A stretch of DNA of 64,000 nt from Candidatus Cloacimonadales bacterium. GTDB lineage: Bacteria > Cloacimonadota > Cloacimonadia > Cloacimonadales > DAONDQ01. The notes under the pieces were generated by a model. The model worked only from the letters and a program-made list of their open reading frames with translations. It did no database searches and was not told where the DNA came from. Of this stretch, positions 852-45,074 are shown in pieces (position 1 is the stretch's first letter; each line of letters opens with the position of its first letter). The translations under genes and the position numbers were made by a program. The stretch is taken from the NCBI GenBank assembly GCA_963662275.1, contig OY759316.1, positions 1,312,001 to 1,376,000 on the forward strand, read 5' to 3'.

Positions 852-912
852 CTTGTCCTCTACCACTTTTAATTTTTAATCTTTAATTTTTAATTGAAAT
901 GAAGCTGCTGCT

Positions 913-3324: not shown

Positions 3325-3343
3325 TGTTACTCCATTTTTTGAT

Positions 3344-3371: not shown

Positions 3372-3389
3372 AATTACGATGTAACATTC

Positions 3390-3628: not shown

Positions 3629-3689
3629 CTTGTCCTCTACCACTTTTAATTTTTAATCTTTAATTTTTAATTGAAATGAAGCTGCTGCT

Positions 3690-11582: not shown

Positions 11583-12197
11583 ATGTTGAACAAATCTACT
11601 CTAGCAAGTCTATTGCTTCTACTGGTTATCCTGTTCCTTTGTGCCTGTGCCGGTAATACACGTACCGTACAAAGAACAGCAACCGATACTACAGTTGACC
11701 TTAGCGGTCGGTGGAATGATGTGGATTCTCGTTTAGTGGCTGAAGAAATGGTGAAAGATGTGACAATACGTCCCTGGTTAACAGATTTCGTAGCTAAAAA
11801 AGGTGCAAAGCCTGTGGTGATTGTAGGTACGATCAGGAATCTTTCAGAAGAGCATATTGAGACCGGAGCTTTCCAGAGCGATATTGAACGTGAATTGATT
11901 AATGGCGGGAATGTGAAGTTTGTGGCAAGTAAAGGAGATCGTGGAGAAGTTCGTTCCGAGAAAACGGATCAGCAATCCAATGCCTCAGAAGAAACCGCCA
12001 AGCGTCTTGCCCAGGAAGTGGGAGCAGATTTCATGTTGCAGGGATCAATTAAGACGATCACAGATGCTGTCGAAGGCAAACAGGTCAAATTTTACCAGGT
12101 AGATCTGCAACTCATCAACGTTGAATCCAGTGAAAAAGTATGGCTGGGAACGAAGAAGATCAAGAAGGTCATTACTCAATCCAATAAAAAGTGGTAA
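11583..12197 (+). CDS. LpoB-like lipoprotein (penicillin-binding protein activator LpoB/COG3417 family)
   Basis: Lipobox-like LCAC; DLSGRWNDVD...VGTIRNLSEEHI...GADFML.GSI...FYQVDLQLIN.ES.EKVW; GAGGAGG RBS. Confidence 0.75.
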   Translation: MLNKSTLASLLLLLVILFLCACAGNTRTVQRTATDTTVDLSGRWNDVDSRLVAEEMVKDVTIRPWLTDFVAKKGAKPVVIVGTIRNLSEEHIETGAFQSDIERELINGGNVKFVASKGDRGEVRSEKTDQQSNASEETAKRLAQEVGADFMLQGSIKTITDAVEGKQVKFYQVDLQLINVESSEKVWLGTKKIKKVITQSNKKW

Positions 12198-16830: not shown

Positions 16831-16838
16831 GAGGAAAA

Positions 16839-27750: not shown

Positions 27751-30093
27751 CTATTTCACTTTTATCATCTTTTTAGTATAGCTGTGCCCCGGTTTATCCA
27801 CTTTGCAGAAATAGACACCCGAGGCGGTCGATTTGCCGTTATCATCCAAACCATTCCAGGTGAGTTGAATCGTACCGGCACACATTTTACCCGCTGCGAG
27901 TGTTTTGACCTGCTGCCCGCGGATATTATAGATATTGATTACGATATCATCAGGTGCAGGTAAATCAAATTCTATCTTTGTGCTTTCCCGGAAAGGGTTA
28001 GGATAAATCCTGATATTGGATACATCCGCAATAGGTGTTGTATCATCATGAACATCTACAGAACCGTATTCATAACAGCCCATATCTACACCATTCCCAT
28101 GAACCCGCGGAGCGCCGTTCAGATCATAGGGATACAACCCGCCCGGTACATCAGTTGTCCCTGCATCGATACAGGGAGAACCGAAGGCTAGTTCATATGG
28201 TTTTTCAGTATTATCTGAATTGAATAAAGGCAATTCATTAATATTCCCTTCCTGCCAATAAATAGTTCCCCACCAGTCTTCATTGAAAACTCCATCAATT
28301 CCATCTTTCACATTACAGTGATTAAAAGCCACGTGATTAACAGGGGGATTTGGTTCAAACGGATGCAGCAGAAATACCTGGTGAGATGTATCATTAGCAA
28401 AAATACAGTTCCAGAAGTTCACAGAGTCCGCACAAATCTGCACTGCTGCACTGGGGCTTTCGTTATCAGCAAATGTACAATTAATGATATCATAAGGTCC
28501 TTTTCCAGAGAAAATAATTGGTCTGCCTTTATATAGTGCATCCGAATATGTACTTTGGTTATCTGTGAAAAGGCAGTTTTCGATGCGATATCTAGGAAAA
28601 TCAAACTGAGTACTTGTTAAAACAACAGAAGCCCCTCCGTATTGTGTGTTATCAGAATTGTTCTGAAAAATGCAATTTCTAATCTGAGCGTTACGTGAAG
28701 CATCAATTCGCAAAGCGCCTCCCTGATCCCAATCGACCTGGAATGCCTGGTTATTCCTGAAAGTAGAGTTTTCAAGATTGGCTTCAGCAACTTCGTTTAG
28801 CATTATGCCTGAAATTCCTTCCAAACCATTATTATTTGAAATAGTTATACTTTTGAATTTGCATACTTCTATACAACCCAATGAAATTGCAGGGACCATT
28901 TTTGAAGTGCAGTTTTCTATTTTTATGTTCTCAAAATAGATATCTGTTGAAAATGCACCACTAATTGCTGCTCTATAGCTTTCGTGTTCAAAATTAGCGA
29001 AACTTAAGTTTTTGAAAACAAAATTGACTATGCCTCTTGGAATGCAGAGCATAGGATAATGGCTATTACCATTGATAATTGTGTTTTCTAGCGACTGTCC
29101 TATCACTTTAACATATGATTTTGCGCTTAATGGTAATTTCTGGTTGTTTGTTACCATGGAATACATCCCATTTGCGATATGTACAGTTTTGGGATTAAGG
29201 CTATCACTGGCTATATTATGCAATGCCCACGCTATAGTTTTCAATGGAGATGCTGAAGTAAGTCCATCGTTATGATCATCACCATCAGTTGCCACGTAGA
29301 AATCATGATTGACAGGTGTTAATAGGGCATGATGGATGTCAAAATTATACAAATAGATATCTTCGATGAAGTTGACTTGTGTTTCCGCATAGTATCTATC
29401 CGGATTTATGACTGTGAAAGTATCCACTATCACATTAACAGTCATTGGTAAATCACAGCTTAAAATGTCAGTTCCCTGCCCTGAATAATTGTTATAGATA
29501 CTGCATCGCTCATTCGCATCCATTGTAAAACCAATTTCATCACCTTGAAGACAAATACCACCGCCACCTGCTGTGGCGAGATTATTAAAAAGTGAAGTCC
29601 CTTTCAGACTTACACTTCCACGCCAAACAAATAATCCGCCTCCAAACTCTGTTTCATTAGCGAATATTCGACAATCTTCAATTGATAACGTGCTATAATA
29701 TCCAATAAGAATGCCTCCTCCGTCATCGAAGTAATAGCAATGTTCCCCTGACCCATTGGTAATGGAGAAGCCGATTATTCTCGCGGAAGTTTCTCCGCTC
29801 ATCACACGTACACAACAGCCCATTCGTTGACCGTCAATAATTGTAGTCCCGATATAGACACGATCATTTGTCGTGAACTTCAGACTGGCAACTGTAATGT
29901 TTTTGCCGTTAAAATCAATGTTCTCCAAATACCTGCCCGGATGGACAAGTACCAAGTCACCATTATTAGAGGCATTGATGGCTGCCTGGATGGTTGGATA
30001 ATTCCCCAGCCCATCCTGTCTGACTGTGATCGTAATTGCACTTAGTGATACTATTGAGAGCGTAACAATGATCAGCAGCATGAATTTTAACAT
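27751..30093 (-). CDS. Secreted beta-helix/DUF1565-like protein with FlgD-Ig/T9SS-A-like CTD
   Basis: Signal peptide; YPTIQAAIN...GD.VLV.PG.Y.ENI; FYVATDGDDHNDG...PLKTI; SPCIDAG..DLNG.PRV.G..VDMGCYE; IYPNPF...IYNIRGQQVKTL...WNG.DDNG...ASGVYF. Confidence 0.87.
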   Translation of the reverse strand: MLKFMLLIIVTLSIVSLSAITITVRQDGLGNYPTIQAAINASNNGDLVLVHPGRYLENIDFNGKNITVASLKFTTNDRVYIGTTIIDGQRMGCCVRVMSGETSARIIGFSITNGSGEHCYYFDDGGGILIGYYSTLSIEDCRIFANETEFGGGLFVWRGSVSLKGTSLFNNLATAGGGGICLQGDEIGFTMDANERCSIYNNYSGQGTDILSCDLPMTVNVIVDTFTVINPDRYYAETQVNFIEDIYLYNFDIHHALLTPVNHDFYVATDGDDHNDGLTSASPLKTIAWALHNIASDSLNPKTVHIANGMYSMVTNNQKLPLSAKSYVKVIGQSLENTIINGNSHYPMLCIPRGIVNFVFKNLSFANFEHESYRAAISGAFSTDIYFENIKIENCTSKMVPAISLGCIEVCKFKSITISNNNGLEGISGIMLNEVAEANLENSTFRNNQAFQVDWDQGGALRIDASRNAQIRNCIFQNNSDNTQYGGASVVLTSTQFDFPRYRIENCLFTDNQSTYSDALYKGRPIIFSGKGPYDIINCTFADNESPSAAVQICADSVNFWNCIFANDTSHQVFLLHPFEPNPPVNHVAFNHCNVKDGIDGVFNEDWWGTIYWQEGNINELPLFNSDNTEKPYELAFGSPCIDAGTTDVPGGLYPYDLNGAPRVHGNGVDMGCYEYGSVDVHDDTTPIADVSNIRIYPNPFRESTKIEFDLPAPDDIVINIYNIRGQQVKTLAAGKMCAGTIQLTWNGLDDNGKSTASGVYFCKVDKPGHSYTKKMIKVK

Positions 30094-30621: not shown

Positions 30622-33114
30622 CTATTTCAGCAGCATCAGCTTTTCCATGACCTGGTGTTCAGCAGTCTGCAAGCGGGCAAAATAAATACTGCTGCTCACT
30701 GCTTCACCATTTTCATTATTGCCGTCCCATTTGATTTTGTGAGAACCTTCAGTTTGCCAGCCATCCCACAAATTTTTTACCAGTTGTCCCTTCACATTAT
30801 AAATCTGCAGGGAAGACGAACCGGCTTTAACAGTATTGTACTCAATGACAGTACTGGGATTGAAAGGATTGGGATAACAGGTCATTCGTATCGGTACTTC
30901 TGTAGCAGGTGTCATGAATGATAGCTCGGTGCTGGCATAGAGGTAATCATCACCCTTATGAAGCTTCAGAGGCGACTGTGTAATGACCCTGGTTTGAGGA
31001 TCATAGACGTAGGCTGTGGAAATGTGCTGCAGTCCGGCTTTCGATTCATAGTATTTGACAATTTCCAGTTCCGTGTCTTCCGGAAGATCAAGGACATAAG
31101 CATTGATTTCCATCAGCGTATCATCAACAACCGAAGCTCCTTTGCAGACACCGTCCGCATAGACAGCGACCTCTTTCAAGCCGGTTTCTGCTCCGAGAGC
31201 GATAAAGACCGGCAGATAATCCGCTTTCTCATCGAAGGTGAAATATTCCGGTATTTCCCTGACTACATGAGGTATTGGTCTAATCCGATTCCAGATAAAA
31301 CTCGGAACTTCATTATAGCATTTAATGATTGCCATATCACCATAATTGAACTGTCTTTTTCCGCTGGAAATCATCCAGCCGTCTTTAGTTCTTGCCATAA
31401 ACCAGGTTTGGGTTTGAATCGAATACACATTTGCCCAGATGGAAGCCAGGGCTTTTTCCGGGGACTGGGATTCCGGCAGAAAATAGCCAACCCAGTTTTC
31501 AATGCGGTTGCCATACAGGTGAAGCGGTGTATCCGGTGAACATCTCGGTGCTGTGATCGAAAGCTCAGAATAATCTGCGGGTGTTGTAATCAGAGCTTTG
31601 TATCCCTGGGGAGAAGTGAGTATATGTAACTGATTTGTCCATTGAGAACCATCCCAATAGTAATAGTTCTGGGTTCCCACTACACTCCATTCTTCATGAC
31701 CAAGAACACTTGTGTTGGCAAGATGTTCCATGACATTTCCAATCTGAGGATTCGTGTCATAGACATCCAGGACGGGATAACAGAGCCAGGTCCAGCCATG
31801 ATGGATGGAATCAGTACCGTAGAACTTGTAGTTGCGTGTTTCCTGGGATACAGGTAATGCTCCCATATCACTACGGGTATTATCAGCATCAGGAAGTTCA
31901 GGATCACCCGCATCAATGCATGGGCTTTTACAGTTTGGTTCCCAGGTTAGCGAGAAGTCATCAGCCTCCAGGTTCTTAAACCCGGGATCAAGATTAATAG
32001 TGCCTGTGTTAATCGTCGGATACACGGTATTACCAATATCGCAATAGGTAATTGTCTGGGGATATTCATTGCTGGAACCAAACGCGCCATTAGTTGCCAG
32101 TTGTATGGGCAGGTCATTATGCATCGCATCCTGGTTATGATAAATAATGCAATTGCTTAAAACTGCCTGTCCGCCCAGATTGCCGGAAGCTCTCTCAAAA
32201 TAAACGCCGACAGCATTGGTAGATGATATGTGATTATGAGCAACTGTGCAATAATCCATGATAAATCTCACCTTGTCGGGACCTAAAAAGTTGAATGCAT
32301 CCGCTGCATAGATGGCACAGGAATGGGAGAAGTTATCGTATACCTGGCAACTGCCGAATAGTACATTGAAGGCATTTGACTGATTTGCTGCAGCATGATT
32401 TACTTCAAATGCCCCGGCATATCCTGCAGGAGCAGAATTTGTATAAATCCCGCACGCCTGGATTGTATGCGTACCTTCTTCAATATACAAGCCCCCTCCG
32501 GAACTGTCATACCCTCCGTCATCTGCAACTGAATTGCTGTATATTTTACAATTTGTAATGCTGCTGCTTCCCCGCATGAGGGCAATGCCTCCGCCATGAA
32601 GAGCAGTATTATTCCTGATATCGCAATGATCAATATTTACATTTATGGCATTTTTACAGAATACTCCGCCGCCTCTGCGCTCATTATGCCCATTTGCCGA
32701 AATTAATGTACCACCGCCATTTTTCAGTGTGAAACCTTTCAGATAAATGCTTACACCCGGAGTGACACAATTAATGATCTCACAGGCGGAATCAGTGAAT
32801 TGAGTTCCCGTGTTTCCGTGGATCATGGTGGAGCCGATAAAATTGGTAATATACGCTTCACAGTAACGGCTCTCAATCGTCAGGTTAGATGTCCTTCCTG
32901 AAATGATAATCGGTCCATAGTCACCGGGATAAACAATGATCCTGACAGCCTCGTTAGGATTCATACACGAAATTGCCGTATAAATTTGCTGGAATGGAGA
33001 GGCAAGCGTACCTATCCCGCCGGTTGAAGATGTGATGTTGACATAAAGTGTTTGAAGTGAGAATAAGATAGAAGTGAGCGTGAGCAGCGTTCCCAAGAAA
33101 ATGACTCGTTTCAT
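30622..33114 (-). CDS. Secreted beta-helix protein with conserved unknown module and FlgD-Ig/T9SS-A-like CTD
   Basis: Signal peptide; G.GTLASPFQQI; GGG-rich beta-helix repeats; SPCIDAGDP..D.DNTRSDMGA; module shared with the 1547-aa protein; CYPNPFNP...IYNVKGQLVK; GGAGG RBS. Confidence 0.87.
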   Translation of the reverse strand: MKRVIFLGTLLTLTSILFSLQTLYVNITSSTGGIGTLASPFQQIYTAISCMNPNEAVRIIVYPGDYGPIIISGRTSNLTIESRYCEAYITNFIGSTMIHGNTGTQFTDSACEIINCVTPGVSIYLKGFTLKNGGGTLISANGHNERRGGGVFCKNAINVNIDHCDIRNNTALHGGGIALMRGSSSITNCKIYSNSVADDGGYDSSGGGLYIEEGTHTIQACGIYTNSAPAGYAGAFEVNHAAANQSNAFNVLFGSCQVYDNFSHSCAIYAADAFNFLGPDKVRFIMDYCTVAHNHISSTNAVGVYFERASGNLGGQAVLSNCIIYHNQDAMHNDLPIQLATNGAFGSSNEYPQTITYCDIGNTVYPTINTGTINLDPGFKNLEADDFSLTWEPNCKSPCIDAGDPELPDADNTRSDMGALPVSQETRNYKFYGTDSIHHGWTWLCYPVLDVYDTNPQIGNVMEHLANTSVLGHEEWSVVGTQNYYYWDGSQWTNQLHILTSPQGYKALITTPADYSELSITAPRCSPDTPLHLYGNRIENWVGYFLPESQSPEKALASIWANVYSIQTQTWFMARTKDGWMISSGKRQFNYGDMAIIKCYNEVPSFIWNRIRPIPHVVREIPEYFTFDEKADYLPVFIALGAETGLKEVAVYADGVCKGASVVDDTLMEINAYVLDLPEDTELEIVKYYESKAGLQHISTAYVYDPQTRVITQSPLKLHKGDDYLYASTELSFMTPATEVPIRMTCYPNPFNPSTVIEYNTVKAGSSSLQIYNVKGQLVKNLWDGWQTEGSHKIKWDGNNENGEAVSSSIYFARLQTAEHQVMEKLMLLK

Positions 33115-33266
33115 TTTTTTCCTCCGTGGATTTTCCTAAAACGTGTATGCCTTAATAGTAATCATTATAATTATATGTCAAGAAAAAGATGAAAATAAAT
33201 TAATAATTAAATACAAATTGAATAAGATGTTTATTATCACAAGATGGATCATTTGCACCCTATAGC

Positions 33267-33514
33267 GGAACGCTGTTTTCAAAAGACTATACTTAACTTG
33301 GAACGCTGTTTTCAAACGGCTGTGCTTCTTGGAACGCTGTTTTCAAACGGCTATGCTTCTTGGAACACTGTTTTCAAACGGCTGTGCTTCTTGGAACGCT
33401 GTTTTCAAACGGCTATGCTTCTTGGAACACTGTTTTCAAACGGCAATGCTTCTTGGAACGCTGTTTTCAAACGGCTATGCTTCTTGGAACGCTGTTTTCA
33501 AACGGCAATGCTTC
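33267..33514. repeat. Tandem array of eight ~31-bp units
   Basis: GGAACGCTGTTTTCAAACGGCTATGCTTCTT at 33267 (diverged), 33300, 33331, 33362, 33393, 33424, 33455 and 33486. Confidence 0.92.
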
Positions 33515-33551
33515 CAGATAAACTACTATCATTCCACTTAATTGATACCAA

Positions 33552-33610
33552 GTTCATACCTGTTTCATACCTGTTTCATACCTGTTTCAATCCTGTTTCA
33601 TTCCTGTTTC
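33552..33610. repeat. 11-bp tandem repeat TTCATACCTGT, about 5 copies
   Basis: ttcatacctgt x3, then ttcaatcctgt and ttcattcctgt. Confidence 0.85.
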
Positions 33611-33964
33611 GAGAAATTGGTATGAGATAGGATTAATATTTGTTTGAACTTGCTATATATCAAGTATACACTTTGAGGAAAGATGTCGGTGTATGGTGGA
33701 GATTAGGATGATTATATGGTTATATTATGGATGATCATATTATGGAATTGTCGAGGAACGAGTCCGAATGACGTTACTCTATCAGCCCAGGAAGTCCCTA
33801 CTGGGAAAAGTAGGGGTCCGCGTCAGCAGACACATTCTGGTTCGGAGTCCGGTAGGACGGAACAAGACGGTAGCGCTTACTTTAGGAGGTTTTTTCTTTG
33901 TGGTCACTGCTTCAGCATGCGGGTAATGTTCTTTAGGTCATTGTCTGCCGTCCTGTGAGCTACC

Positions 33965-34163
33965 GGAACGCCTGACCCCGTCAGGTGGCATAACGCACCC
34001 CGTGCGTTTCAATATTCCAACAGAAGCAGGATCGGCATCCTGCTCTACAACCGCGTGAATGCGGAGCTACGTAACAGCAGGATCGGCATCCTGCTCTACA
34101 AAGAAGGCAACCTGAAGGATGCCACTACCAAAGAAAGACAGTAAGAACGGCATCTTACTTTAC
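33965..34163. repeat. Composite REP mosaic (BIME-like), left flank of the CARF/HK/REC trio
   Basis: GGAACGCCTGACCCCGTCAGGTGGCA...GCACCCCGTGCGTTTC; AGCAGGATCGGCATCCTGCTCTAC x2; ACCGCGTGAATGCGGAGCTAC; AACCTGAAGGATGCCACTACC. The same modules recur at 39733-40175. Confidence 0.8.
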
Positions 34164-35260
34164 TGAATAATCTCCATCGCCTTATCATACCATACTATCA
34201 CTTCGCAGATCTGAGCTAAAAGAGATTGCATTGTATAGATGCTTATGTTTGCAATATTAGCATTTGAAATATTTACGCCTTTACTGAGACTATGAACACC
34301 ACATTCACTTGTAATATCATATATTGAAGCAAGTGCATTGCGAATGATAGAATTATAACTGATATTCTTTTTTAGATTATAAGCAGGAAGTCCAGATCCT
34401 TCAACGACTTTACCTTGATAATATCTTCCATTGATAAATTGCATAATCTTCAGCAATTGTGTTTTCTCTGAATTCCAATAATCAGCATTATATTCCCCCA
34501 TTCCAAAAGCAAGGGAATGTAAAATGTTTTCACATAGATTACGCAATAGGAATAAAAATTCGCTTCTTTTATCAGATGAATGATATCTTATCATATCAAT
34601 GAATTTATCAACCATCTCTTCACCTAATTCAAATCTAAGTATTGAACATTGTAAAAGATATTGATTTTCTATATTCATTGATTCAGAATCATTAATAGCT
34701 TTTATGATTTTACCTTCAGCTTCTGAACCTTTTATAATTACCCGTTCTATGCTGAATTGCTTAGTATCTATAAAGTGATCCAGTTTATGAATTCCTTCCG
34801 GAATATATGGATGAGCTGTGAGAAAGAATATTTTACATAAATTATCATGGTTTTTAATAAATAATAAAAATGCAAGAATGTCACCTTCTCTTTCCATATG
34901 TCCATCGACTATACTCTGAGCATCTCCAATTCCACTTTCTTTGAGAATTTCTAGGATATTTGGAATTTCAGCATGATATTTCCTACTATAGAGATTTCGA
35001 TCAATAATGAAAAGCTCATATTTATGACTTTCGTTTGTGATTTTTTTTATTGCTTCAGGGAATGAATAGCAAATTTCTAACTTACTAATTTCCTTACAGG
35101 CATCTATTATGTTATCTGCATTATTAAGGGCATTATTTTCTTCGATTTCGGTTAAGCGCTTCAATACCTTTTCGTTGCCTTTCATTAGTGTTTTAAAAAA
35201 TGTCTTAATTGTTGCTATATTTTTCGTAATTTCATCTTCTATATAAAGAATTTTACTCAT
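34160..35260 (-). CDS. Atypical receiver-domain protein with unknown C-terminal effector (DUF4145/HEPN-like pattern, tentative)
   Basis: Start reassigned to ATG 35260 (GGAGG RBS, overlaps the upstream stop). Receiver motifs MSKILYIEDE..LFIIDRNL..FFLTAH..IIKG with insertions. C-terminal LRNLCENIL...RNALASIYDITSECGVH. Confidence 0.65.
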   Translation of the reverse strand: MSKILYIEDEITKNIATIKTFFKTLMKGNEKVLKRLTEIEENNALNNADNIIDACKEISKLEICYSFPEAIKKITNESHKYELFIIDRNLYSRKYHAEIPNILEILKESGIGDAQSIVDGHMEREGDILAFLLFIKNHDNLCKIFFLTAHPYIPEGIHKLDHFIDTKQFSIERVIIKGSEAEGKIIKAINDSESMNIENQYLLQCSILRFELGEEMVDKFIDMIRYHSSDKRSEFLFLLRNLCENILHSLAFGMGEYNADYWNSEKTQLLKIMQFINGRYYQGKVVEGSGLPAYNLKKNISYNSIIRNALASIYDITSECGVHSLSKGVNISNANIANISIYTMQSLLAQICEVIVWYDKAMEIIQ

Positions 35261-37844
35261 TTGACCTCCAATAATCTTGAAATGTAATCGTAAAAGAATA
35301 CAAATTATTATTTTCACTAATGATTGGTTTGCAGTCGAGAACCTTCGTAAAATTCTCAATGACGACTTGCCCAATTCCAGTAGTTTTTGCTTTAATTTCC
35401 GGATTGTAAGAATTTAGAATATTTAGAGTTAATAAACCATCATGTTCAATCAATTCAATATGCAGTTTTCTTTGTTTGAAAAGGACATATGAACAGTACT
35501 TAACAGCATTAAATATGATTTCTTGGAACAAGATTAACAATTTAATAGCAGAACTTTTTACATTCCCTATTTTGTAGCTATCAATTCCCACAAGTGTAAT
35601 TCGTAAATCAAAGAAAAATCGACGAATAAAAGTCGTTATTTTCTCTATATCATCTGTTTGCGACACAGCATGCCACTCATGAGCTATGCTTTGAGTTAGA
35701 TTTTCTTCTGGAAAATAATTCTCATTAAATTCTGAGAAGTACATTTTATCAAACATATTTCCAATCGAATAGATAAGACTATTGATAATCATGGATTTTA
35801 AGGATATAGCACTTTTCCCAGGATTATTAATGTCAAAGATCAAATCGTCAATTGCAATCGAAAAAGATGAATTAATTGAATTTACAATCTCATATATCAG
35901 ATTAGTTCCTCGCAAGGCATTTTCAATAATGTTAACCTTCCCAGGTACTTCTTCTTTCAAATTGCTCAAGGGACGGCTTACTGAGACTAATAAATTTTTA
36001 ATACTATGTGATAGATTTGACATAATACGGTTGCGTTCCTTTTCTTTAGCAGTGTGGATTTGCTGATTTAACTCATTAGTTAGTTGTTTTTGAATTTGAA
36101 ATACTAGCTTAAGAAAAAATACAAGCTCAACTTCAGATAATTTATGACTTAATCCAATACACCATTCCAACAATTCGCTTTTTATCGAGATTTCTTTATA
36201 GATCTTACCATATTCGGAGGTTTTCACGATCTTTGTTTTATCAGTATCCCATTTTTTCTGTATTTTTAAAAATTCCGGATAGATATTATCTTTGAAATTG
36301 TCATCACTAAGCAACTTTTGTGAATCGGTGGGTTGTTTAGTTTCGAAATCTGCATTGATAAAAAGCTTAGATAACAACATTATATATGGTTCTATCGTCA
36401 TTTTATCGTAAGGAATTTCGCACGAAAAAAAAGAATTTATGTCATACTTTCCCTCAGGAGGTAACGCACTTAAAATGTAGTCATCAAGAGTACGAATGTC
36501 AAGATGTGGTGATTTTTTGTTAGTTGATCTTTTTTTAAGAGAAAACATGACAGAATTGTACAACTTCTCAGACGAGAATGATTGTAAAATTCCTGTTGCT
36601 TCGGTCATTTTTCCTATATTAATACAAGCTCCCATATACAACCAATCGATATATGCGTTTGTAGTTTTGATGAACTCTTGGTAAAAGGAAATAATTGCTT
36701 CAAAGAATTTCTCACTATATAGTTCAATAAATAGTTGATCTATATCTTGATACTCTTCATCTATGATTTTTGTTAATTCTACCCTTGCTTGGGCAAAGTT
36801 TCCAGTTCTTAAAAAAAATAGCACTTTCTCCCAAACAGGTGTATGTCCATTTCGTTCATAAGATATATTCAAGGCTTCATAAGCTTCATCATTGCGTTTG
36901 AGCGACAAAAGAATATAATATTTATCTAAATAGACATCGCCGATATCTTCATATTCCTGGAATTTAGCAAGCAATGTATTCATTGCACTTAAAGCATCAT
37001 CAAATTCATTAAATCGTTCACATAATTTGTATTTATGCTCAAGCATTTTATAACTGTCAGGATTCAGCGATATTGCTATGTCACATGCATTGATGGCTTC
37101 TTGTATTCGATTCAAAACCTCCAGGATAGAGCTTTTTGTAAAATATAAGTCACCATTTTCCGATTGAATAGTGATGGCTTTTTCAATAGAAACCAAAGCA
37201 TTATCATATTTTCTGAGTCTTCGTAGGATTAGACACTGCTGTTTATATAATTCAATGTCGTTTGGGATTAAAGCAATCGCATCGTTGATAATATCAAGGG
37301 CTTCCTGCTCTTTATTTTCATATAAGAGGATATTAGAGTGTAAAATATAATAATTTGGTTTTGATTGATCTAATAAAATTGCCTGCTTAATTTCTGCTAA
37401 AGAATTTAGTAAGAATTGGTTTTTGTCGAGCATATAATCGGATTTTGTTTCACTTACCTGACCGGTCATTTCTTTAAAATCCAGTTCAAACTCGATTTTG
37501 CCGGAACTATCTTTTGCTAGTTCTAAACAAATCTCTGCTTTACAGGAGTGATAGATTGCAAGAGATTCGCAGTCCAATGCAATGTTGATATTTTCAAGAG
37601 CTTGATGCAGAAGATCATTCTTTGCCAATGATCTCATCTTCATTCCATACTTTTCATACTCTTTATAATTATGTTTGCCTAATAAAAACACAGCCTTGGC
37701 ATAATAACAACCAGATAGCGGGCAGAGTTTAATCGCTTCATCAATAGTATCCAAAGCTAAATCTATATCCCCTTTTCTATATATTTCAAAGGCTTTGAGA
37801 CTCAGATCAAAACTCTGTTTATGGGTATCTATTGTTTTTTTCAT
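35253..37844 (-). CDS. Cytoplasmic TPR-repeat protein with C-terminal atypical histidine-kinase (HisKA/GHKL-like) domain
   Basis: Many TPR-like helices (ALD.I..AI.L.P). H-box LSHSIKNLL; N-box QEIIFNAVKY; ILNS..KTTGIG in place of canonical G1/G2. No signal peptide or TM segment seen. Confidence 0.7.
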   Translation of the reverse strand: MKKTIDTHKQSFDLSLKAFEIYRKGDIDLALDTIDEAIKLCPLSGCYYAKAVFLLGKHNYKEYEKYGMKMRSLAKNDLLHQALENINIALDCESLAIYHSCKAEICLELAKDSSGKIEFELDFKEMTGQVSETKSDYMLDKNQFLLNSLAEIKQAILLDQSKPNYYILHSNILLYENKEQEALDIINDAIALIPNDIELYKQQCLILRRLRKYDNALVSIEKAITIQSENGDLYFTKSSILEVLNRIQEAINACDIAISLNPDSYKMLEHKYKLCERFNEFDDALSAMNTLLAKFQEYEDIGDVYLDKYYILLSLKRNDEAYEALNISYERNGHTPVWEKVLFFLRTGNFAQARVELTKIIDEEYQDIDQLFIELYSEKFFEAIISFYQEFIKTTNAYIDWLYMGACINIGKMTEATGILQSFSSEKLYNSVMFSLKKRSTNKKSPHLDIRTLDDYILSALPPEGKYDINSFFSCEIPYDKMTIEPYIMLLSKLFINADFETKQPTDSQKLLSDDNFKDNIYPEFLKIQKKWDTDKTKIVKTSEYGKIYKEISIKSELLEWCIGLSHKLSEVELVFFLKLVFQIQKQLTNELNQQIHTAKEKERNRIMSNLSHSIKNLLVSVSRPLSNLKEEVPGKVNIIENALRGTNLIYEIVNSINSSFSIAIDDLIFDINNPGKSAISLKSMIINSLIYSIGNMFDKMYFSEFNENYFPEENLTQSIAHEWHAVSQTDDIEKITTFIRRFFFDLRITLVGIDSYKIGNVKSSAIKLLILFQEIIFNAVKYCSYVLFKQRKLHIELIEHDGLLTLNILNSYNPEIKAKTTGIGQVVIENFTKVLDCKPIISENNNLYSFTITFQDYWRSNE

Positions 37845-38002
37845 AACAACCTCTTTATATTACTTTGTTAATTGCCATACAGACTGATAACAAGTAATTT
37901 ATGTTCCAGTGAAGTCATTAAAGCCTAAAACTTACATTATCAATGGAATAGCAAAGTAAACAGGTAATCCTAATTTATTATTACGTAAATATCTTTACCA
38001 TC

Positions 38003-39472
38003 CTACGTAACATCTTTTACTTTCTTCAGCCTTGCTCGGAATGTATGCGGTTCCAATCCAAGTAATTTGGCAGCTTGGGTGGCATTTCCATTAGCTTTCT
38101 TTAAGGCTGACTGGTAGATGGAGGGAAGTATGATATTTTCTAGGTCTATTCCTTCAATGGGTATTTCAATGTTGAATTTATCGGAATGAGTCTCTTGAAT
38201 CAGGATATCTTTCGCTTCGACGGTATCGTTCAGGCTGTTGATGTAGGAAAGACGCACAACGCTCTTCAATTCACGGATATTACCAGTCCAGCGGTGTTTG
38301 AGTATTTTCTTTTCAGCAGCGGAGGAGAAATGCTTCTGTTCATGATTCTGCTGGCTGTATTCGGAAAGGAAATGATTTGCCAGCAGGATGATATCAGTGG
38401 CTCTATCACGTAGCGGGGGAATATACAATTCAGCCTGCACAATACGGTAGTACAGATCTTCCCTGAATGTCTTTTCTTTTATCATTTCAGATAGATTCCT
38501 GTTGCTTGCTGAGATGAGACGCACATCGATCTTCTTCGATTTACCGCCGACAGGCTGGATGGTTTGCGTTTCCAGGACTCTCAGCAGTTTGGTCTGCATG
38601 GATAAAGGCAGATCACCAATTTCATCGAGGAAGAGTGTGCCTCCGTCTGCTACAGAGAAATGACCTTCATGATCTGCAATGGCACTGGTGAAAGAGCCTT
38701 TCTTATGTCCGAAGAATTCGCTTTCAAAGAGACTTTCACTGATTGATCCGCAGTTTACAGCCACAAACGGCTTTTCCTTGCGTGCTGAATTGTAATGCAG
38801 GCACCTGGCAGCAAGCTCTTTACCTGTTCCGCTTTCACCGCCAATGAAGACTGGAATATCATACCTGGCATAGCGTGATATCCTTTCCTTCAATTCAATG
38901 ATGGAAGGATGTTCGCCAATGATCTCGTCATATTCGAGAAGCAGTTTATTCTTGAGAATGACATTTTCACGAGATAGCCTGGTCATCTCAGTCTTGATAG
39001 ATTTATCGTCAGCTATTTTGGGGAAGTCATCCAAACTGAAGGCTATTTCCTTAATTCCGATCTCCCTGGAGCTTTGAATCAGCTTTGCCTTAATTACACC
39101 GCCCTGCACAATAAAAAGCCAACAGGCATGCATCGTTGGCGTTCCAGAGGTAACAGAAATCGTGTATTCGACTTCGTTCGTCCCTTCATTCTTCAATATG
39201 GATTTCACTGCCAGGACCATAGCCGGATAGACGGTATTATAATCTGTGGGATCGATGGAAAGAGCGGGTTCGTAATGTACTTTCAGAGCAGGATGGTTCT
39301 TTTTGCAGTACACCAGGATTTCGGAGGCATAAGGAAGGTATTTGTCGCTGTTATAGAGAATATACAGATCATCGTAAGACATACTCTCCAATATGCTGAG
39401 AATTGCGCCTTTCTTGTTATCGCTTAAGAAGCAGTCATTATTTCCGATGAAACTAAGGAGTATCTTTTTCAT
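38003..39472 (-). CDS. RtcR-like sigma54 activator: CARF-like sensor, AAA+ and HTH
   Basis: N-terminal ILLSFIGNND...DPTDY...ISVTSGTPTMHACW (CARF/RtcR-like); GESGTGKE; ESEFFGHKKGSFTSA; LFLDEIGD; WTGNIREL; NATQAAKLLGL HTH. Confidence 0.85.
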   Translation of the reverse strand: MKKILLSFIGNNDCFLSDNKKGAILSILESMSYDDLYILYNSDKYLPYASEILVYCKKNHPALKVHYEPALSIDPTDYNTVYPAMVLAVKSILKNEGTNEVEYTISVTSGTPTMHACWLFIVQGGVIKAKLIQSSREIGIKEIAFSLDDFPKIADDKSIKTEMTRLSRENVILKNKLLLEYDEIIGEHPSIIELKERISRYARYDIPVFIGGESGTGKELAARCLHYNSARKEKPFVAVNCGSISESLFESEFFGHKKGSFTSAIADHEGHFSVADGGTLFLDEIGDLPLSMQTKLLRVLETQTIQPVGGKSKKIDVRLISASNRNLSEMIKEKTFREDLYYRIVQAELYIPPLRDRATDIILLANHFLSEYSQQNHEQKHFSSAAEKKILKHRWTGNIRELKSVVRLSYINSLNDTVEAKDILIQETHSDKFNIEIPIEGIDLENIILPSIYQSALKKANGNATQAAKLLGLEPHTFRARLKKVKDVT

Positions 39473-39732
39473 TATCCTCCCAAAAACTAATTTCGAAGTG
39501 CGAAGTAAAAGAACAAACTCATCCGTCAGATGACCTCCCTACCCTCCTTCCCAAGGAGGGAAGTGCCACCACTTCGACTACGCTCATTGCAGCGCTTCCC
39601 TTTAACCAAAGGGAAGGACTAAATAGGTGTATGATGATAGCAGGGCGGGAAGGGCATTTGTTTGTCAAGAAGTTTGAGGAAGACACCAATACAACCCCCC
39701 TTTAATCCCCCCTCGGGGAGGGGGGTATTTAA

Positions 39733-40175
39733 CGGAACGCCTGACCCCGTCAGGTGGCAAAAAGCACCCCGTGCGTTTCTATCTCCAAGCTGAAGCAGGC
39801 TCAACAAAGAAGCAACCTGAAGGATGCCACTACCAAAGAAAGACAGTAGGATCGGCATCCTACTCAACAAAGAAGCAACCTGAAGGATGCCACTACCAAA
39901 GAAAGACAGTAGGATCGGCATCCTACTCAACAAAGAAGCAACCTGAAGGATGCCACTACCAAAGAAAGACAGTAGGATCGGCATCCTGCACACAACCGTC
40001 TAAAGGCGGAGCTACGAAGACCAACCGCGTGAATGCGGAGCTACGAATCAGCAAGAACGGCGTCTTGCTTTACAACCGCGTGAATGCGGAGCTACGAATC
40101 AGCAAGAACGGCGTCTTGCTTTACAACCGCGTGAATGCGGAGCTACTCTTCAGCAGGAACGGTGTCCTGCTCTAC
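39733..40175. repeat. Composite REP mosaic with 3x63-bp and 3x51-bp tandem units, right flank of the CARF/HK/REC trio
   Basis: Header GGAACGCCTGACCCCGTCAGGTGGCA as at 33965; 63-bp units at 39801, 39864 and 39927; 51-bp units at 40022, 40073 and 40124. Confidence 0.85.
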
Positions 40176-40206
40176 TCAAATTATCTCCAGAAGTAAGTGC
40201 TACAGA

Positions 40207-42067
40207 GAGACTGTTCAGGCAGTTATTCATAAGATACAACAATTTAGGAAGTATCAAGTTGAAAAAAGTGGTCGAAACGGTCATAATTTAACATACCTTC
40301 CAGAATTGACAGATAAGCTCTGCTAAGGACACCAAATCACAAGTTAAGCTTTTTGACTAAAAATATCAAACACGCGAGTATAAGTAATTTCTCGAAGTCG
40401 TTTCTGACTATAAGTGTATCTAAAATCATATAAAATAGTTCTTTACATGTTTATTGCTATAGCTTCAATGGCATTTGTTACCTGGTAACAAAAGGGAGGA
40501 TATTATGACAAAAAAACACTCCAATTCAAGAAGCTGTAAGTGTCAGTCATGAAAGTAACCAATACTATGTAAGTATTAACGTACCATGTTCATTTTGTTT
40601 GCCTGAAACGACATCCAACCACAAGTTCTTAATAGCGTTTCTACGCTTATTAGTAGGAATAGGCGGAGACAACCTCCTTACACTTCAGCAAATAGCTGAT
40701 CTGTTTAACTACGCAGACCGCAGGAATGTACATAATTTCTGGCAAGAGTTTGAGCAGCATGGTCATGATATCCTGGCATATTTAAGCCGGAAAGTTGACC
40801 TGCTGGAGTGTATTCCTCAGATCGAGAATTTTGTTATCAATAACCTGCTTTTACCTTTAAATGTCATGTATCAGGAGTTCATCAGCCATCATGATTTTAA
40901 AATGTCCTATACCACTTTCTGCAAATATGCTTCTCAGGTCAATTCTCTGTCTGTAGTTAAGCAAGCTCAGAAGCTTCTTCTGAAAAAGACAGTAGGCGGT
41001 GATGCTGTACATCTGCTGAAACTGCTTGCCGGTCAGCAGAATACACCTGTTATCTGTGACAGACTCCTGGAACAAATGAAGACTGCTAAAGGCAATACAT
41101 CCCATAGAACCGCCGATGCAAAGCCGTTCCATAGTCTGGAACGCAAGAACCTGTGTCTGCTGGTACATTACCTGGTTGGAAGCGGTATGAACTTCGAGAC
41201 GATAGCTTTGCTGCTCAACACCTGTAAAGCTACAGTCTCAAATCTCTGGCATGAAATCGCTGACCTGCAGAGCCTGATTCTGAACTCAATCGGTAAGTGG
41301 AGCGGAAAGATCAGCATTGATGAGAAATATGTGAAGATCAAAGGTATTCCGTACTATGTCATCAGTATTGTTGATTTTGTGACTCACATCCCTCTGTTTT
41401 GTGAGTTGTATCCTGACACAAAGAAAGAATCATTCGAAGCATGTTTCAGAACCTTCAGACAGCTCTACAGGAAAGATCCAACCCTGATTGTCAGTGATGG
41501 CAGTAAATCGTTAGCAGTTGCAAGAAAAACAGTGTTTCCAAAAGTCCATTACCAACTCTGTAAGTTCCATAAGATACGAAATCTCTTCAAAAGAATCAGT
41601 CAATGTCATCTCCCTGAAGACAGGGACAAGTTCTTTAAGAAGAGGATTATGAAAGCTTTCCGAAGAGAAACGGCGGGCGGAAGGAAAAAGGGTATCGCAA
41701 GCCTGACAGCTATTACTCCCCCAACCGCCGCCGAATACATCAAAAGCAATATCATTAGTGATTGGAGACACCTCAGCAAAGGTTTGACTTCCAATGTCTC
41801 TGAACGCTGGAACCGCAAAATCAAGAAGGTGACATCCGGTAGATTTGGACTAAAATCTGAAGAAACCACCCGCAACCTTGTGTTTTCGCTTTGGTTCAAA
41901 GAACTGGTCGATAAAGGTCAACCAATCATGCGTCAGGAATCACTTTTAGCCAGTTTAAATATCTCCCGCATATGTCAAGAAAATGTGGATTGGTCGCACT
42001 TAGACCACTTTTTCTCTGTCACTACCAATAAGGCTGCGTAAAATGGAGGTTAATTTTGAACAGTCTC
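40207..42067 (+). mobile_element. Complete insertion sequence (1861 bp) with terminal inverted repeats and 8-bp target-site duplication
   Basis: IRL GAGACTGTTCA at 40207; IRR TGAACAGTCTC ending at 42067; direct repeat GCTACAGA at 40199-40206 and 42068-42075; encodes a DDE transposase. Confidence 0.93.
40505..42041 (+). CDS. DDE transposase (IS6/ISH6/IS256-like motifs); RBS-linked start is out of frame across an A7 run
   Basis: SIDEKYVKIKG..YVISIVD; IVSDG; HYQLCKFH; TSNVSERWN. GGGAGG-ATG at 40505 is followed by A7; the long frame opens at 40509 (the ORF track starts it at TTG 40599). Confidence 0.85.
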
Positions 42068-42239: not shown

Positions 42240-45074
42240 ATGAAGTGTAAAAGGAAGAGAAGCCTTTTCATTTTAGTGGCTTTGATCTCCTTACTGGGTT
42301 TTACCATCGCTGTCAAGGCAAGCAGCGATGATAGCAGTTACGTGGTAAAAAACTTTAAGGTAGTCGATGTTCCCTATGATGATGGCACGGGTCTCCAACT
42401 CAGTTGGAATCCATTACCAAAAGAGAAGCGAATCATTGAATACCGCGTTTATCGTGGTGTTACTCCAGACAGTCTTTTCTTGCTGGGTACAATACCAATT
42501 AATGTGAAAACAGGTGTTGCCGGTGATTCAGTATATTATACTGATAAAGATTTGAATGTCCTGGTGGATATCAGTGCTCCCGGAAGATTAAAGAAAGAGA
42601 AGCAGCAAGGAGCTAAAAGTCCTTTGTACGGAGATGTCCCACGTGATGTTAAAGTACTAAACTCTATCTTCTCTAAGTATAGCTTTTTAAGTATCATTCC
42701 CAAAAAAGACTTCTATTACCGTACGACAAAAACAAATGCACCTGATAAGGCAGATTCAACTACATACGCCGGTTTGAAGATGAGACAGGTAACTTTGCTT
42801 GCCAGTTTAAATCCAAATACGAAGTATTATTATACAGTTGTTGCTTTAGATGAACGACGTGCTTTTCATAAGCATGCCCCTGTTCAATCAGGTATCCCTG
42901 TAGAAAATGCACCGGAACCAGTTCCCAAATTTAGTTCAGTGTATGTGAAAGATACGAATAAGATGCAGTTTGAGTGGGAATTACCCTTGTTCAAGGGTGA
43001 TCTGGCACAATATCAGATTTATGCTGTTCCTGCTTCATCACAAGCAGCCTTCGATGATTTCCGCCTTCATCCCATTCCCCAAACTCAATCTCCAGGTTTG
43101 CCAATTGCTGCCGGACAGATCGACATTGCCAGTTCAGATTCCTATAATATGGCTATTGTTGATATGAATGGAAGATCCCTCAATCCAGATACAATAGATC
43201 AACTTCGATTTGCTATTGGAATCATGGATTATGCTGGGAATGAAGTATTATCTTCGCTGGTTGCCCCAAAAGTCATCCTTTCTTCCCAACTACCTCCCAG
43301 ACCAACTTTTCTAGTGAAAGATAAACCGAATGATAAAGGTGAAATTCTTACACTCACTTGGAATAAACCGGTTGTATATGTGAACCAGACAAATTTCATC
43401 AGTGCTGATCGCAAGAAACTGATGGTTAATTACATGGAAAATGTGAATTCTGAGTTTAAGATAAAAAAACTGGCTTTCGATTTCTATAAGATCAATGATA
43501 CGAAGCCATTTAAGACACATCACGAATATTACCAGGATAACAAGATCATTGTAACACTACCTAAAGATTATAATCCTGAACTCGGATTGAATGTCAGGAT
43601 TAGGATTACATCCGTGCCTGCAGTATCTGATAAGTATGTCTTCACACAAAATCTTGTTTTCAATAAACAGACAAAATCCATGATTCCAGATAAATTGATG
43701 TCGGACGGAAAAGACGTGAACGAATTTTCCTATGTGATTTATAAAAAATTACGCAATTCCCAATCCTACACTCTTTCTAAAAAGCTCAACGGTAATCAAA
43801 ACTCGTTTGATGATAATATCCGTTTTGAAAAGGATATTTACAAACCTGTGGCTTACATGGATAAGAAAACAAACCAGGTATTGGTGAATTCAGATATTGA
43901 CATCACTTATGATAAAAAGGCAAAAGCTGTTGTTCAAACCAGTATTTATGCAAATGAAGCAAAAAAGCTGATGGCTAAACAGAAGAAAAGCTTGGATGAT
44001 AAACTCATTCAATTACGTGCCCAGATTCCCCAGGTCAATGATCCACAGCAATTAGCACAACTACAGGACCAGATTAATAAAACAACCGCCAGGCTGGAAA
44101 TGTTTAATAATCCTATCCTGAAGCAATCACTTACATTTACAGGTGATAGAAGCCGTATGCATTTCGTTTCTGCTAACAGGGAAAGTAATAAGCGCCAGGC
44201 ATCTTATCGGATGATTGTCAGTAATGGTGAAGGCATTTTTACCGAGTCTGATATCACGAAGGACAAAGACGACGAGACAGTTTATTATACACCTGTCGGA
44301 AATTGGTTTGATAAATCGAAAATTCCGATGCTGATAGCTTCAATCGTGTTCGGTTTACTGGTTGCCTTCATGATTCGCAAGGCGAAATTGGGACACGATC
44401 TCTTCATTCGTCCTATTGCCGGTATCCAGGAAATTGATAATGCTATAGGTAGAGCCACGGAAATGGGTAAACCAATCCTGTATTGTCCAGGTCTCGGTGG
44501 TCTTTCTGATGTAGCTACCATAGCTTCATTAGGTATTCTGGGTCAGGTTGCGAAGAAGACTGCTGAATATGATACGAAATTGATCGTTCCATGTTATGAC
44601 TTTATCATGATGCCTGTTGCCCAGGAAATCGTGAGAGAAGCTCATTATGAAGCAGGTCGTCCTGATTCATATGATAAGAACAATGTGTTTTATCTAACGA
44701 ATGTGCAATTTGCGTATGTTGCAGGTGTAAATGGTATTATGATTCGTGAAAACTGTGCTACAAACTTCTATATGGGTATGTTCTATGCAGAGGCTTTGTT
44801 GATGACAGAAACTGGTAATACGATCGGTTCAATTCAAATTGCCGGAACAGATGCTGTTACCCAGATTCCTTTCTTCATAACAACATGCGATTATACACTT
44901 ATTGGAGAAGAATTATATGCTGCTTCAGCGTATTTAGTTAAAGAACCCATGATGTTGGGAACCCTGAAAGCTCAGGATTATTTTAAATTCCTGATTCTGT
45001 TCTTTGTGATTCTTGGAACAGTGCTGACAACTAGTCACATAACTTTTTTAATTAATGTATTTCCTGAGAAGTAG
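42240..45074 (+). CDS. Membrane protein with exported FN3-like domains, coiled coil and C-terminal DUF6754-like domain
   Basis: Signal peptide; FN3-like motifs DVPYDDG.GL.LSW...EYRVYRG, YYYTVVA, DKPNDKG..L.LTW; TM segment; then IRPIAGI.EID.AIGRATEMG...QFAYVAGV...GMFYAEALL..ETG...IQIAGT...PFF...CDYTLIGEELYAASAYL...LKAQD. DUF6754 name is from memory. Confidence 0.75.
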   Translation: MKCKRKRSLFILVALISLLGFTIAVKASSDDSSYVVKNFKVVDVPYDDGTGLQLSWNPLPKEKRIIEYRVYRGVTPDSLFLLGTIPINVKTGVAGDSVYYTDKDLNVLVDISAPGRLKKEKQQGAKSPLYGDVPRDVKVLNSIFSKYSFLSIIPKKDFYYRTTKTNAPDKADSTTYAGLKMRQVTLLASLNPNTKYYYTVVALDERRAFHKHAPVQSGIPVENAPEPVPKFSSVYVKDTNKMQFEWELPLFKGDLAQYQIYAVPASSQAAFDDFRLHPIPQTQSPGLPIAAGQIDIASSDSYNMAIVDMNGRSLNPDTIDQLRFAIGIMDYAGNEVLSSLVAPKVILSSQLPPRPTFLVKDKPNDKGEILTLTWNKPVVYVNQTNFISADRKKLMVNYMENVNSEFKIKKLAFDFYKINDTKPFKTHHEYYQDNKIIVTLPKDYNPELGLNVRIRITSVPAVSDKYVFTQNLVFNKQTKSMIPDKLMSDGKDVNEFSYVIYKKLRNSQSYTLSKKLNGNQNSFDDNIRFEKDIYKPVAYMDKKTNQVLVNSDIDITYDKKAKAVVQTSIYANEAKKLMAKQKKSLDDKLIQLRAQIPQVNDPQQLAQLQDQINKTTARLEMFNNPILKQSLTFTGDRSRMHFVSANRESNKRQASYRMIVSNGEGIFTESDITKDKDDETVYYTPVGNWFDKSKIPMLIASIVFGLLVAFMIRKAKLGHDLFIRPIAGIQEIDNAIGRATEMGKPILYCPGLGGLSDVATIASLGILGQVAKKTAEYDTKLIVPCYDFIMMPVAQEIVREAHYEAGRPDSYDKNNVFYLTNVQFAYVAGVNGIMIRENCATNFYMGMFYAEALLMTETGNTIGSIQIAGTDAVTQIPFFITTCDYTLIGEELYAASAYLVKEPMMLGTLKAQDYFKFLILFFVILGTVLTTSHITFLINVFPEK

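Follow-up and report, generated by a model that had tools for sequence, protein, structure and literature searches.

A three-gene cassette of a CARF activator, a TPR histidine kinase and a receiver protein with a HEPN-like domain in a Cloacimonadota genome: a candidate defence or stress signalling system

What might three adjacent genes do together when they encode, in order, a transcriptional activator with a CARF domain, a soluble histidine kinase and a receiver protein with an output domain of its own? The question is raised by positions 34160-39472 of the window, which is the whole stretch of DNA analysed here, 64,000 nucleotides (nt) of Candidatus Cloacimonadales bacterium (assembly GCA_963662275.1, contig OY759316.1, positions 1,312,001 to 1,376,000 of the forward strand). 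An earlier note, made from the sequence of this window alone, had proposed a candidate stress or anti-phage signalling system at this place, in which a ligand-activated sigma54 regulon would drive a phosphorylation-gated effector. The reading preferred here, with a rough probability of 0.55, is that the genes form a conserved, mobile and horizontally moving signalling-effector cassette with a role in biological conflict (defence or stress) and with two inputs acting in series. Its architecture, a CARF-type activator, then a soluble sensor kinase, then a receiver whose output domain is likely HEPN-like, is firmly supported. The genes and their control region are as follows, in the direction of transcription.

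38003-39472, minus strand: gene of the CARF-AAA+-helix-turn-helix (HTH) activator (open reading frame (ORF), 489 amino acids)
37845-38002, minus strand: intergenic control region between the activator and kinase genes (158 nt, from the sequence)
35253-37844, minus strand: gene of the TPR histidine kinase (ORF, 863 amino acids)
34160-35260, minus strand: gene of the receiver-effector protein (ORF, 366 amino acids from the ATG used by homologues)

The layout is that described in the earlier note: all three genes are on the minus strand, and the last two overlap by 8 nt (35253-35260). An alternative start of the receiver gene, a TTG at 35374, would add 38 amino acids. The kinase and receiver genes are indeed AT-richer than their surroundings, with GC contents of 0.316 and 0.300 (0.29 and 0.22 at third codon positions) against 0.434 (0.48) in the activator gene and 0.395 in the whole window. 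All three are single-copy genes in this genome (4.38 Mb, 99.97% complete), and none of the three proteins has a hydrophobic stretch of membrane-helix length.

The activator was divided into three domains.

38963-39472, minus strand: CARF domain (about residues 1-170)
38429-38923, minus strand: sigma54 AAA+ domain (residues 184-348)
38021-38107, minus strand: Fis-type HTH (residues 456-484)

Judged by its profile matches, this protein belongs over its full length to the CARF_AAA_HTH group, named RtcR_PspF2 by PADLOC. Model PDLC01995 (RtcR_PspF2--CARF_AAA_HTH) matches residues 2-485 with an E value of 4.6e-131 and over profile positions 1-478 of 481, which bears out the call of a CARF-sigma54 activator. 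Pfam gives the same order of domains, with Sigma54_activat (4.5e-65), AAA_lid_14 and HTH_8, and a weak match to RtcR, the CARF N-terminus (1.2e-5). That the protein is RtcR proper was considered and rejected: the NCBIfam RtcR equivalog NF038308 scores 288.3 bits (1.2e-85), under the 650-bit cut-off, and neither RtcB (PF01139) nor RtcA (PF01137) has a match anywhere in the genome. The window had been said to hold no rtcA, rtcB or cas gene, and this is so; RAMP, Cas1 and Cas10 are not found in it and every match to them in the genome lies outside. The genome does carry rpoN. Across the Cloacimonadota and Cytophagia loci the activator is 52-61% identical, and the kinase and receiver only 26-51%.

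The kinase consists of two regions.

36285-37844, minus strand: soluble sensor region with TPR repeats (residues 1-520; Pfam and hydropathy)
35253-36284, minus strand: transmitter core (residues 521-863; coiled-coil linker, DHp helix pair and GHKL catalytic domain)

Pfam TPR_14, TPR_2, TPR_1, TPR_8 and TPR_19 match at residues ~160-330, and as the 19-residue Kyte-Doolittle mean does not exceed a maximum of 1.35, a membrane helix is not expected; the description of the kinase as soluble with a long TPR sensor holds. The sensor region varies among relatives, whose kinases are 440-1070 amino acids long, and in one locus (L026 in our numbering of homologous loci) a CARF domain takes the place of the TPR repeats. 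The C-terminal part is predicted to fold as a DHp and catalytic-domain histidine kinase. Its AlphaFold model (predicted local distance difference test, pLDDT, 80.9) gave 226 Foldseek matches in the PDB at E<=0.001, the top rows being mostly histidine-kinase transmitter modules, among them those of ZraS (1.4e-7), BceS, HK853, AgrC and phytochrome kinases, which agrees with the naming of this gene as a histidine kinase. The H-box SHSIKN (H613), N-box NAVKY (N779) and G2 box GIG (G823/G825) are present, and H613, N779, G823 and G825 are invariant in 35 sequences, namely the window kinase core (residues 520-863) and 34 relatives. The ATP-lid motifs are atypical, as noticed earlier: the DxGxG of the G1 box is missing, with N811 in the place of the Asp, and the lid is short. 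Pfam HisKA and HATPase_c do not match the window kinase at E<=1, and no model of Pfam, NCBIfam or PADLOC recognises the core, of which at least 122 relatives were found at 90% clustering; a few relatives have precomputed PF00512 or PF14501 matches.

The receiver-effector protein was divided on the basis of its predicted structure, modelled from an alignment of homologues (pLDDT 85.4, predicted template-modelling score 0.73).

34670-35260, minus strand: REC domain with two inserted helical segments (residues 1-197)
34160-34669, minus strand: HEPN-like helical effector domain (residues 198-366)

In the model, the N-terminal half of the effector is a REC domain. VIA-align of about residues 1-200 found many REC structures at Z 9-10, for example ComE (4cbv, Z 10.0, root-mean-square deviation (rmsd) 3.4, 126 residues aligned) and PorX (7pv7, Z 9.9); Foldseek returned DesR and others with a probability of ~1 but an E value of ~0.1. 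The EDE/D/T/K residues that had been read from the sequence are E8-D9-E10, D87, T148 and K177, and R88 and E125-G126-D127 are conserved too. A profile search of 1.84 billion representatives gave 353 relatives at E<=0.001, of which 115 were at E<=1e-30. Conservation in this family was counted in the best 150 of the 353, over those aligned at each position, and the phosphorelay residues are nearly invariant (D9 in 132/132, D87 in 137/137, K177 in 141/142). Pfam Response_reg does not match the protein, and Pfam, NCBIfam and PADLOC gave nothing meaningful for it or for all 17 homologues of the first round. HTH models also gave no match, in line with the earlier statement that the protein has none, and an ordinary DNA-binding response regulator was rejected in view of this and of the REC and HEPN-like folds. 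In other proteins the same type of REC domain is fused to Schlafen AlbA_2, to an AAA_15/21 ATPase or to the conflict-system adaptor EAD8.

The C-terminal half likely has a HEPN-like fold, as the structure search suggested by the earlier note indicates, and not a DNA-binding one. The best VIA-align matches of residues ~197-366 were the HEPN domains of Roquin (4txa, Z 10.7, rmsd 3.2, 126 aligned) and AF_0298 (2hsb, 10.3), followed by 2jpu (9.6), sacsin (3o10, 9.2), TT1696 (1ufb, 8.8), RnlA (7aex, 8.8) and AbiA (8oz7, 8.7); all seven are annotated HEPN structures, and as these Z values fall in the range below ~13 where VIA-align warns of generic helical bundles, the fold is taken as likely and not as proven. 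The LRxxxE...H pattern without a clean RxxxxH, which had been noticed in the sequence, corresponds to R240, E244 and H323, with Ser318 and not Arg five positions before H323. H323 is at the position of the His of the HEPN Rx4-6H motif, and in the alignment a paralogous REC protein encoded in L026 has the His of its RNCVAH there. Sx4H is present in 93/150 representatives, and Arg or Lys is found at the Ser position in 0/150, so that the earlier wording of the motif was exact. R240 (129/134), S318 (102/123), H323 (111/123) and W357 (113/114) are conserved and E244 is near-invariant. The predicted active site is non-canonical, with Ser318-x4-His323 and an invariant Arg240 on another helix.

If these proteins work as a unit, their genes should be found together, and the earlier note had taken co-occurrence in homologous loci as a test. 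Loci centred on the receiver comprised 8 from species genomes and 18 metagenomic ones, which are 24 distinct loci after removal of two duplicates (L015 of L001, and L025 of L006). In 20 of the 22 that can be evaluated, the gene immediately upstream of the receiver encodes a kinase of the same family, and the two genes usually overlap; the kinase is missing in L004 and L024, and L018 and L027 are too short to judge. Ten loci have both the kinase-receiver pair and 2 kb or more of sequence upstream, and 8 of the ten carry the activator, which in L021 lies downstream and on the opposite strand; L003 and L026 are without it. The linkage holds from the activator side as well, with 16/20 counted as having the receiver family downstream if L072 is included, in a non-random sample of 20 places with strong matches from different genera (among which L069 is the L001 contig and L076 the L006 contig). 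The activator is followed on its 3' side by the same-family kinase and receiver in 11/20, by the same-family kinase with the contig ending inside it in 1/20 (L072), by a divergent large protein and a receiver in 3/20 (L075, with TPR; L077; and L079, with an N6-methylase domain), by a receiver alone in 1/20 (L081), by Cas10 palm and RAMP genes in 1/20 (L083), and by none of these in 3/20 (L078, L080, L082). The three genes do co-occur, and the cassette is patchy: the CARF domain of the activator is present in 35/232 genomes of the phylum (20/66 genera) and absent from the only other genome of the same genus.

Some variants were also seen in these loci. The regulator of L084 is a short CARF-HTH protein without AAA+, and those of L085 and L086 are similarly short. 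L003 encodes a second, divergent pair at 389-3738, a 641-amino-acid TPR protein and then a 475-amino-acid protein that matches the receiver-family hidden Markov model (HMM) at 9.8e-9, followed by an AAA_15/21 ATPase of the NsnB/AriA/GajA type.

The relatives also connect the cassette with CRISPR-Cas. L026 is a 16-kb metagenomic contig with the type III-D effector genes Cas7/Cas5 IIId and Csx19, after which come, in order, a CARF-kinase fusion, a receiver-HEPN protein, a second CARF-kinase-like protein, a second REC protein, cas6, cas1, cas2 and csx20. The two CARF-kinase and REC-effector pairs occupy 6389-11961. In the first kinase a Csx1-type CARF domain (PADLOC CARF2, 1.9e-43) is joined to the kinase core (family HMM, 3e-72), and the second REC protein (494 amino acids, no library match) has the canonical RNxxxH motif as RNCVAH. 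The window genome itself has a type III-D locus about 1.75 Mb from the window (contig C1, ~3,092,700-3,105,100; L035), with a Cas10 bearing GGDD, Csx19, Csx1 and an 893-amino-acid reverse-transcriptase-Cas1 fusion; its gene order is that of L026, but an ordinary Csx1 (CARF-HEPN) follows the large Cas7. Among the genomes of the phylum, a full-length Cas10 palm match is present in 17/35 that are activator-positive vs 38/197 that are activator-negative, a naive odds ratio of 3.95 (Fisher p 4e-4) to be read with the non-independence of related genomes and the incompleteness of assemblies. On contig C44 of genome G225, a second match resembling the CARF activator (16793-17290) and a Cas10 palm match (7431-7895) lie ~9 kb apart.

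Other neighbours of the cassette are Mu/TniB transposon genes (L001, L013), a NERD-UvrD helicase (PADLOC C3a187, 1.7e-54), an SNF2 helicase of the HmaA/DrmD type (1e-151), an AAA_15/21 ATPase of the NsnB/AriA/GajA type, a Rep3 plasmid initiator, and a DDE transposase with ArdC. On the question of defence genes nearby, which the earlier note had asked, CRISPR-Cas, defence-type helicases and ATPases, and transposons are found next to homologous loci.

How the activator might control the other two genes was approached through the 158-nt spacer. A sigma54-like site, TGGAACATAAATTACT, was found at 37893-37908, ~50 nt before the kinase start, as a pattern match with 2 mismatches. In relatives, GG-N10-GC sites are present just 3' of the activator gene in L001, L002, L006, L011, L012 and L013. 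That of L002, TGGCACGACACTTGCC, is a perfect TGGCAC-N5-TTGC and the others are close variants; those at the position equivalent to the window site are, besides that of L002, TGGTATAACTATTGCA in L012, TGGAACATTGAATGCA in L006, TGGAACACGGCATGCA in L013 and TGGAACAACTATGGCA in L011. AT-rich palindromes of the type GTAAT..ATTAC, seen by eye only, directly follow the activator stop codon in the window and several relatives. The GC at -12 of sigma54 promoters is near-invariant, and the window site has AC there. The ligand-activated sigma54 regulon of the earlier note is upheld in part: the CARF_AAA_HTH activator and the GG-N10-GC sites of relatives agree with it, the window site matches those sites in position but not at -12, and control of the operon by the activator is putative.

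In three relatives a small HNH_3 endonuclease gene (~70-130 amino acids) is located between activator and kinase, downstream of the sigma54-type site (L067, at 1644-1865; L074; L076), and L006 and L013 have similar ORFs there. The spacer of the window contains no HNH gene.

From these parts a mechanism in three steps can be proposed. The CARF domain of the activator would bind a nucleotide signal, for which the candidates are a cyclic oligoadenylate from the type III-D system of the same genome or, as reported for RtcR, 2',3'-cyclic-phosphate RNA ends, and the signal-bound activator would switch on the sigma54 promoter ahead of the kinase/receiver operon. The soluble kinase, which has the fold and residues for it, would then sense a second cue through its variable TPR region, autophosphorylate on H613 and hand its phosphoryl group on to D87 of the receiver. 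The REC domain, once phosphorylated, may in turn release or dimerise the HEPN-like domain, which may cleave or bind RNA, leading to growth arrest or abortive infection, and the products could feed back on the CARF sensor. On profile matches and predicted structures, the cassette is most likely a phosphorylation-gated RNase module under CARF control, in defence or stress, and it is probably an anti-phage or stress switch related to CRISPR signalling. A role in biological conflict is the best reading because of the patchy and mobile distribution, the fast evolution of sensor and effector, the swappable effector domains and the placing of versions inside or beside type III CRISPR-Cas. It also matches a published proposal, in the part of that paper available, that RtcR-like CARF activators head defence operons with HEPN RNases, with feedback via cyclic-phosphate RNA ends (PMC11090510).

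The overall interpretation of the earlier note is partly supported: domain identities, co-occurrence and neighbourhoods speak for it, and sigma54 control of the window copy, sensing by the TPR region and nuclease activity are putative. Several results weigh against the conflict-cassette reading. The window site has AC at -12. Sigma54-like sites with 2 mismatches number 29 in the window vs 28.5 expected in shuffles, and as such sites are not enriched, support for the one ahead of the kinase comes from its position and its homology to the sites of relatives only. The canonical Arg is replaced by Ser in 102/123 aligned representatives, so RNase activity is not assured; the HEPN matches have the Z values of generic bundles discussed above, and no sequence profile (Pfam, homologues or a profile search of PDB sequences) ties the domain to a HEPN family. 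In the PDB profile search the rows were at chance level, the best being PMS1 at an E value of 0.019, and in the ESM Atlas the C-terminal half reached 0.83 and 0.76 to unnamed clusters, under the informative level. The CARF-kinase fusion is known from one 16-kb metagenomic contig; among the best 120 of its 224 matches, both parts were found only in the query's own cluster, and the rest were of the CARF or the kinase half. No Cas10 is seen in 18/35 activator-positive genomes, and a type III messenger therefore cannot serve as the ligand in general. Housekeeping genes adjoin the cassette in several loci, a tblastn search of plasmid and phage collections found no relatives of the receiver protein, and PADLOC-DB v2 has 0 families at E<=1 for the kinase or the receiver protein.

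Within the conflict-cassette reading, a narrower version is possible and is held tentatively. CARF cyclic-oligonucleotide signalling may be relayed by a His-Asp phosphorelay to the REC-HEPN protein, either through the CARF-kinase fusion of L026 or, as in the window, through a sigma54 activator one step earlier. This would be a 'split Csx1', with a kinase between sensor and nuclease. If true, it would add a second-input (TPR) gating to CRISPR-type immunity, and the effectors, at least 353 clusters at 50% identity, would constitute a family that had no annotation before.

Of the alternatives, a housekeeping RNA-stress circuit survives best, though we consider it unlikely. The activator would here sense damaged RNA, and the kinase and REC-HEPN-like protein, perhaps as an RNA-binding regulator, would tune RNA turnover or translation for recovery, the phage link being incidental. 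The resemblance of the activator to RtcR (NCBIfam 1.2e-85, Pfam RtcR 1.2e-5) fits such a circuit, given the tie of the RtcR CARF domain to tRNA fragments and RtcAB in the parts available of two publications (PMC7790460, PMC9650030). Some loci have only housekeeping neighbours, e.g. UvrC, chorismate synthase and RND (resistance-nodulation-division) pumps, and the non-canonical HEPN site could mean binding and not cleavage. However, the genome is without RtcA and RtcB, and the cassette is patchy, being found in 35/232 genomes and absent from the only other genome of the genus; its GC content is atypical. Transposons, a plasmid Rep gene and defence-type genes adjoin it, one version lies inside a CRISPR-Cas operon, and the same REC domain is fused to Schlafen, an OLD-like ATPase and EAD8.

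The Ser in place of the catalytic Arg also bears on a doubtful alternative in which the HEPN-like domain is catalytically dead and serves as a phosphorylation-controlled adaptor or ligand-binding module that sequesters or activates another protein, such as the small HNH nuclease of relatives. Nuclease-inactive HEPN folds (Roquin, sacsin) are among the best structural matches, and the HNH_3 gene is indeed placed between activator and kinase in L067, L074 and L076, with similar ORFs in L006 and L013, but it is lacking from the spacer of the window. Against it, the strong conservation of the polar or aromatic positions R240, E244, S318, H323 and W357 is what an active or binding site would show, and where these proteins align the paralogous REC protein of L026 still has a canonical RNxxxH.

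That the window cassette is a decaying passenger of a mobile element, no longer working as a unit, is improbable: the -12 mismatch, the low GC, the MULE-type transposase and tandem repeats at its flanks and the orphan receiver genes without a kinase elsewhere (L004, L024, L081) would suit it, but the three frames are intact and full length with every family-invariant residue kept, and the translationally coupled 8-nt overlap is preserved.

The immediate surroundings of the cassette contain tandem repeats on both sides, at 33267-33514 (31 bp x 7.9 copies, 92% matches), 39800-39987 (63 bp x 3, 100% identical) and 40022-40175 (51 bp x 3, 93%). Each 63-bp unit contains a hairpin followed by a T-run, as detected by the terminator scan. 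No Rfam family was found at E<=0.1 in 33000-40700, the flanking repeats included, and the sigma70-promoter and terminator scans gave numbers close to those in shuffles and were set aside. At 40599-42041 on the plus strand, some 1.1 kb past the activator gene, a 480-amino-acid ORF has MULE/Mutator-family and DDE transposase domains, which is consistent with a mobile context of the cassette. It is followed by a 944-amino-acid protein (42240-45074, plus strand) whose C-terminal 250 residues match DUF6754 (7.7e-118). On the other side, two large proteins (27751-30093 and 30622-33114, both minus strand) have C-terminal type IX secretion sorting domains (Por_Secre_tail, FlgD_ig), one of them additionally with beta-helix and pectinesterase-like parts, and many further ORFs of similar length are found across the window.

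The cassette can be placed between two-component signalling and CARF-controlled HEPN effectors, both of them known kinds of system. It resembles Csx1/Csm6, the CARF-HEPN ancillary RNases of type III CRISPR-Cas, in that a HEPN-type output would be under the control of a CARF sensor; the L026 kinase CARF domain is of the Csx1/TM1812 'DxTHG' type, and the kinase and REC-HEPN genes follow the large Cas7, the place of Csx1 in the III-D locus of the window genome. It differs in that sensor and effector are separate proteins, which a His-Asp phosphorelay, and in the window sigma54 transcription too, would join, and in the motif, Sx4H vs Rx4-6H. With RtcR and the RtcR-like activators of CoCoNuT superoperons, as given in the available part of PMC11090510, it shares a three-domain architecture, a putative sigma54 dependence and the position of the activator at the 5' end of a co-oriented operon with a HEPN-type protein. 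The activator differs from RtcR in its score (288 vs 650 bits) and in a genome without rtcA and rtcB, and its operon carries a two-component pair where the others have Rtc enzymes or McrBC-type CoCoNuT genes.

The closest published analogue of the kinase-receiver pair, as far as the available part of the source goes, is HEF_HK (PF19191) with Response_reg_2 (PF19192), two-component-like pairs linked to restriction-modification and paraMORC (PMC8011034). In both, a soluble divergent kinase and a loop-inserted divergent receiver lie side by side in conflict-type neighbourhoods and are missed by the standard HisKA/Response_reg models. The cassette sensor is TPR or CARF, not HATPase_c_3 as described there, and its links are to CARF activators and type III CRISPR-Cas, not to C5 methylases, although in the relative L079 the place of the kinase is taken by an N6_Mtase-containing protein. 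Membership of this group was rejected, as neither PF19191 nor PF19192 matches anywhere in the genome at E<=1. In classical two-component systems whose response regulators are enzymatic (PorX, RssB), phosphotransfer to a REC domain gates an output that does not bind DNA, as is proposed for the cassette, and the REC domains of PorX and ComE are among the best structural matches of the effector; the output of the cassette is HEPN-like, in contrast to theirs.

In the literature searched, with the 2020 CARF census and its supplements outside the search, no description of a REC-HEPN or CARF-kinase fusion was found. The term 'REC-HEPN' is absent from it, and the papers found on CARF, histidine kinases, HEPN, receivers, type III CRISPR and two-component systems in combination all deal with other systems. 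The available parts of the HEPN census (PMC3710099) and of Kaur et al. 2020 (PMC7159879) describe no REC-HEPN fusion and no such architecture, respectively, and a review of type III CARF/SAVED effectors (PMC9704534) does not contain the words 'kinase', 'sigma' or 'RtcR'. A figure legend of the DefensePredictor paper names TPR, HATPase and REC as domains that occur in predicted, unvalidated systems, which may be a prior hint of this architecture.

Cloacimonadota are uncultivated and common in anaerobic digesters, and little is accordingly known of the immunity of this phylum. If the conflict-cassette reading is true, the locus would join CARF/second-messenger immunity and two-component phosphorelays, which are usually studied separately, and would put a name to a sizeable protein family without annotation, the REC-HEPN-like proteins and their dedicated kinases. 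It would also provide a testable example of a phosphorylation-gated nuclease effector, and of a defence cassette for which two independent cues are required, a transcriptional one (CARF) and a post-translational one (TPR), an arrangement that would bear on how cells avoid self-damage by abortive-infection effectors.

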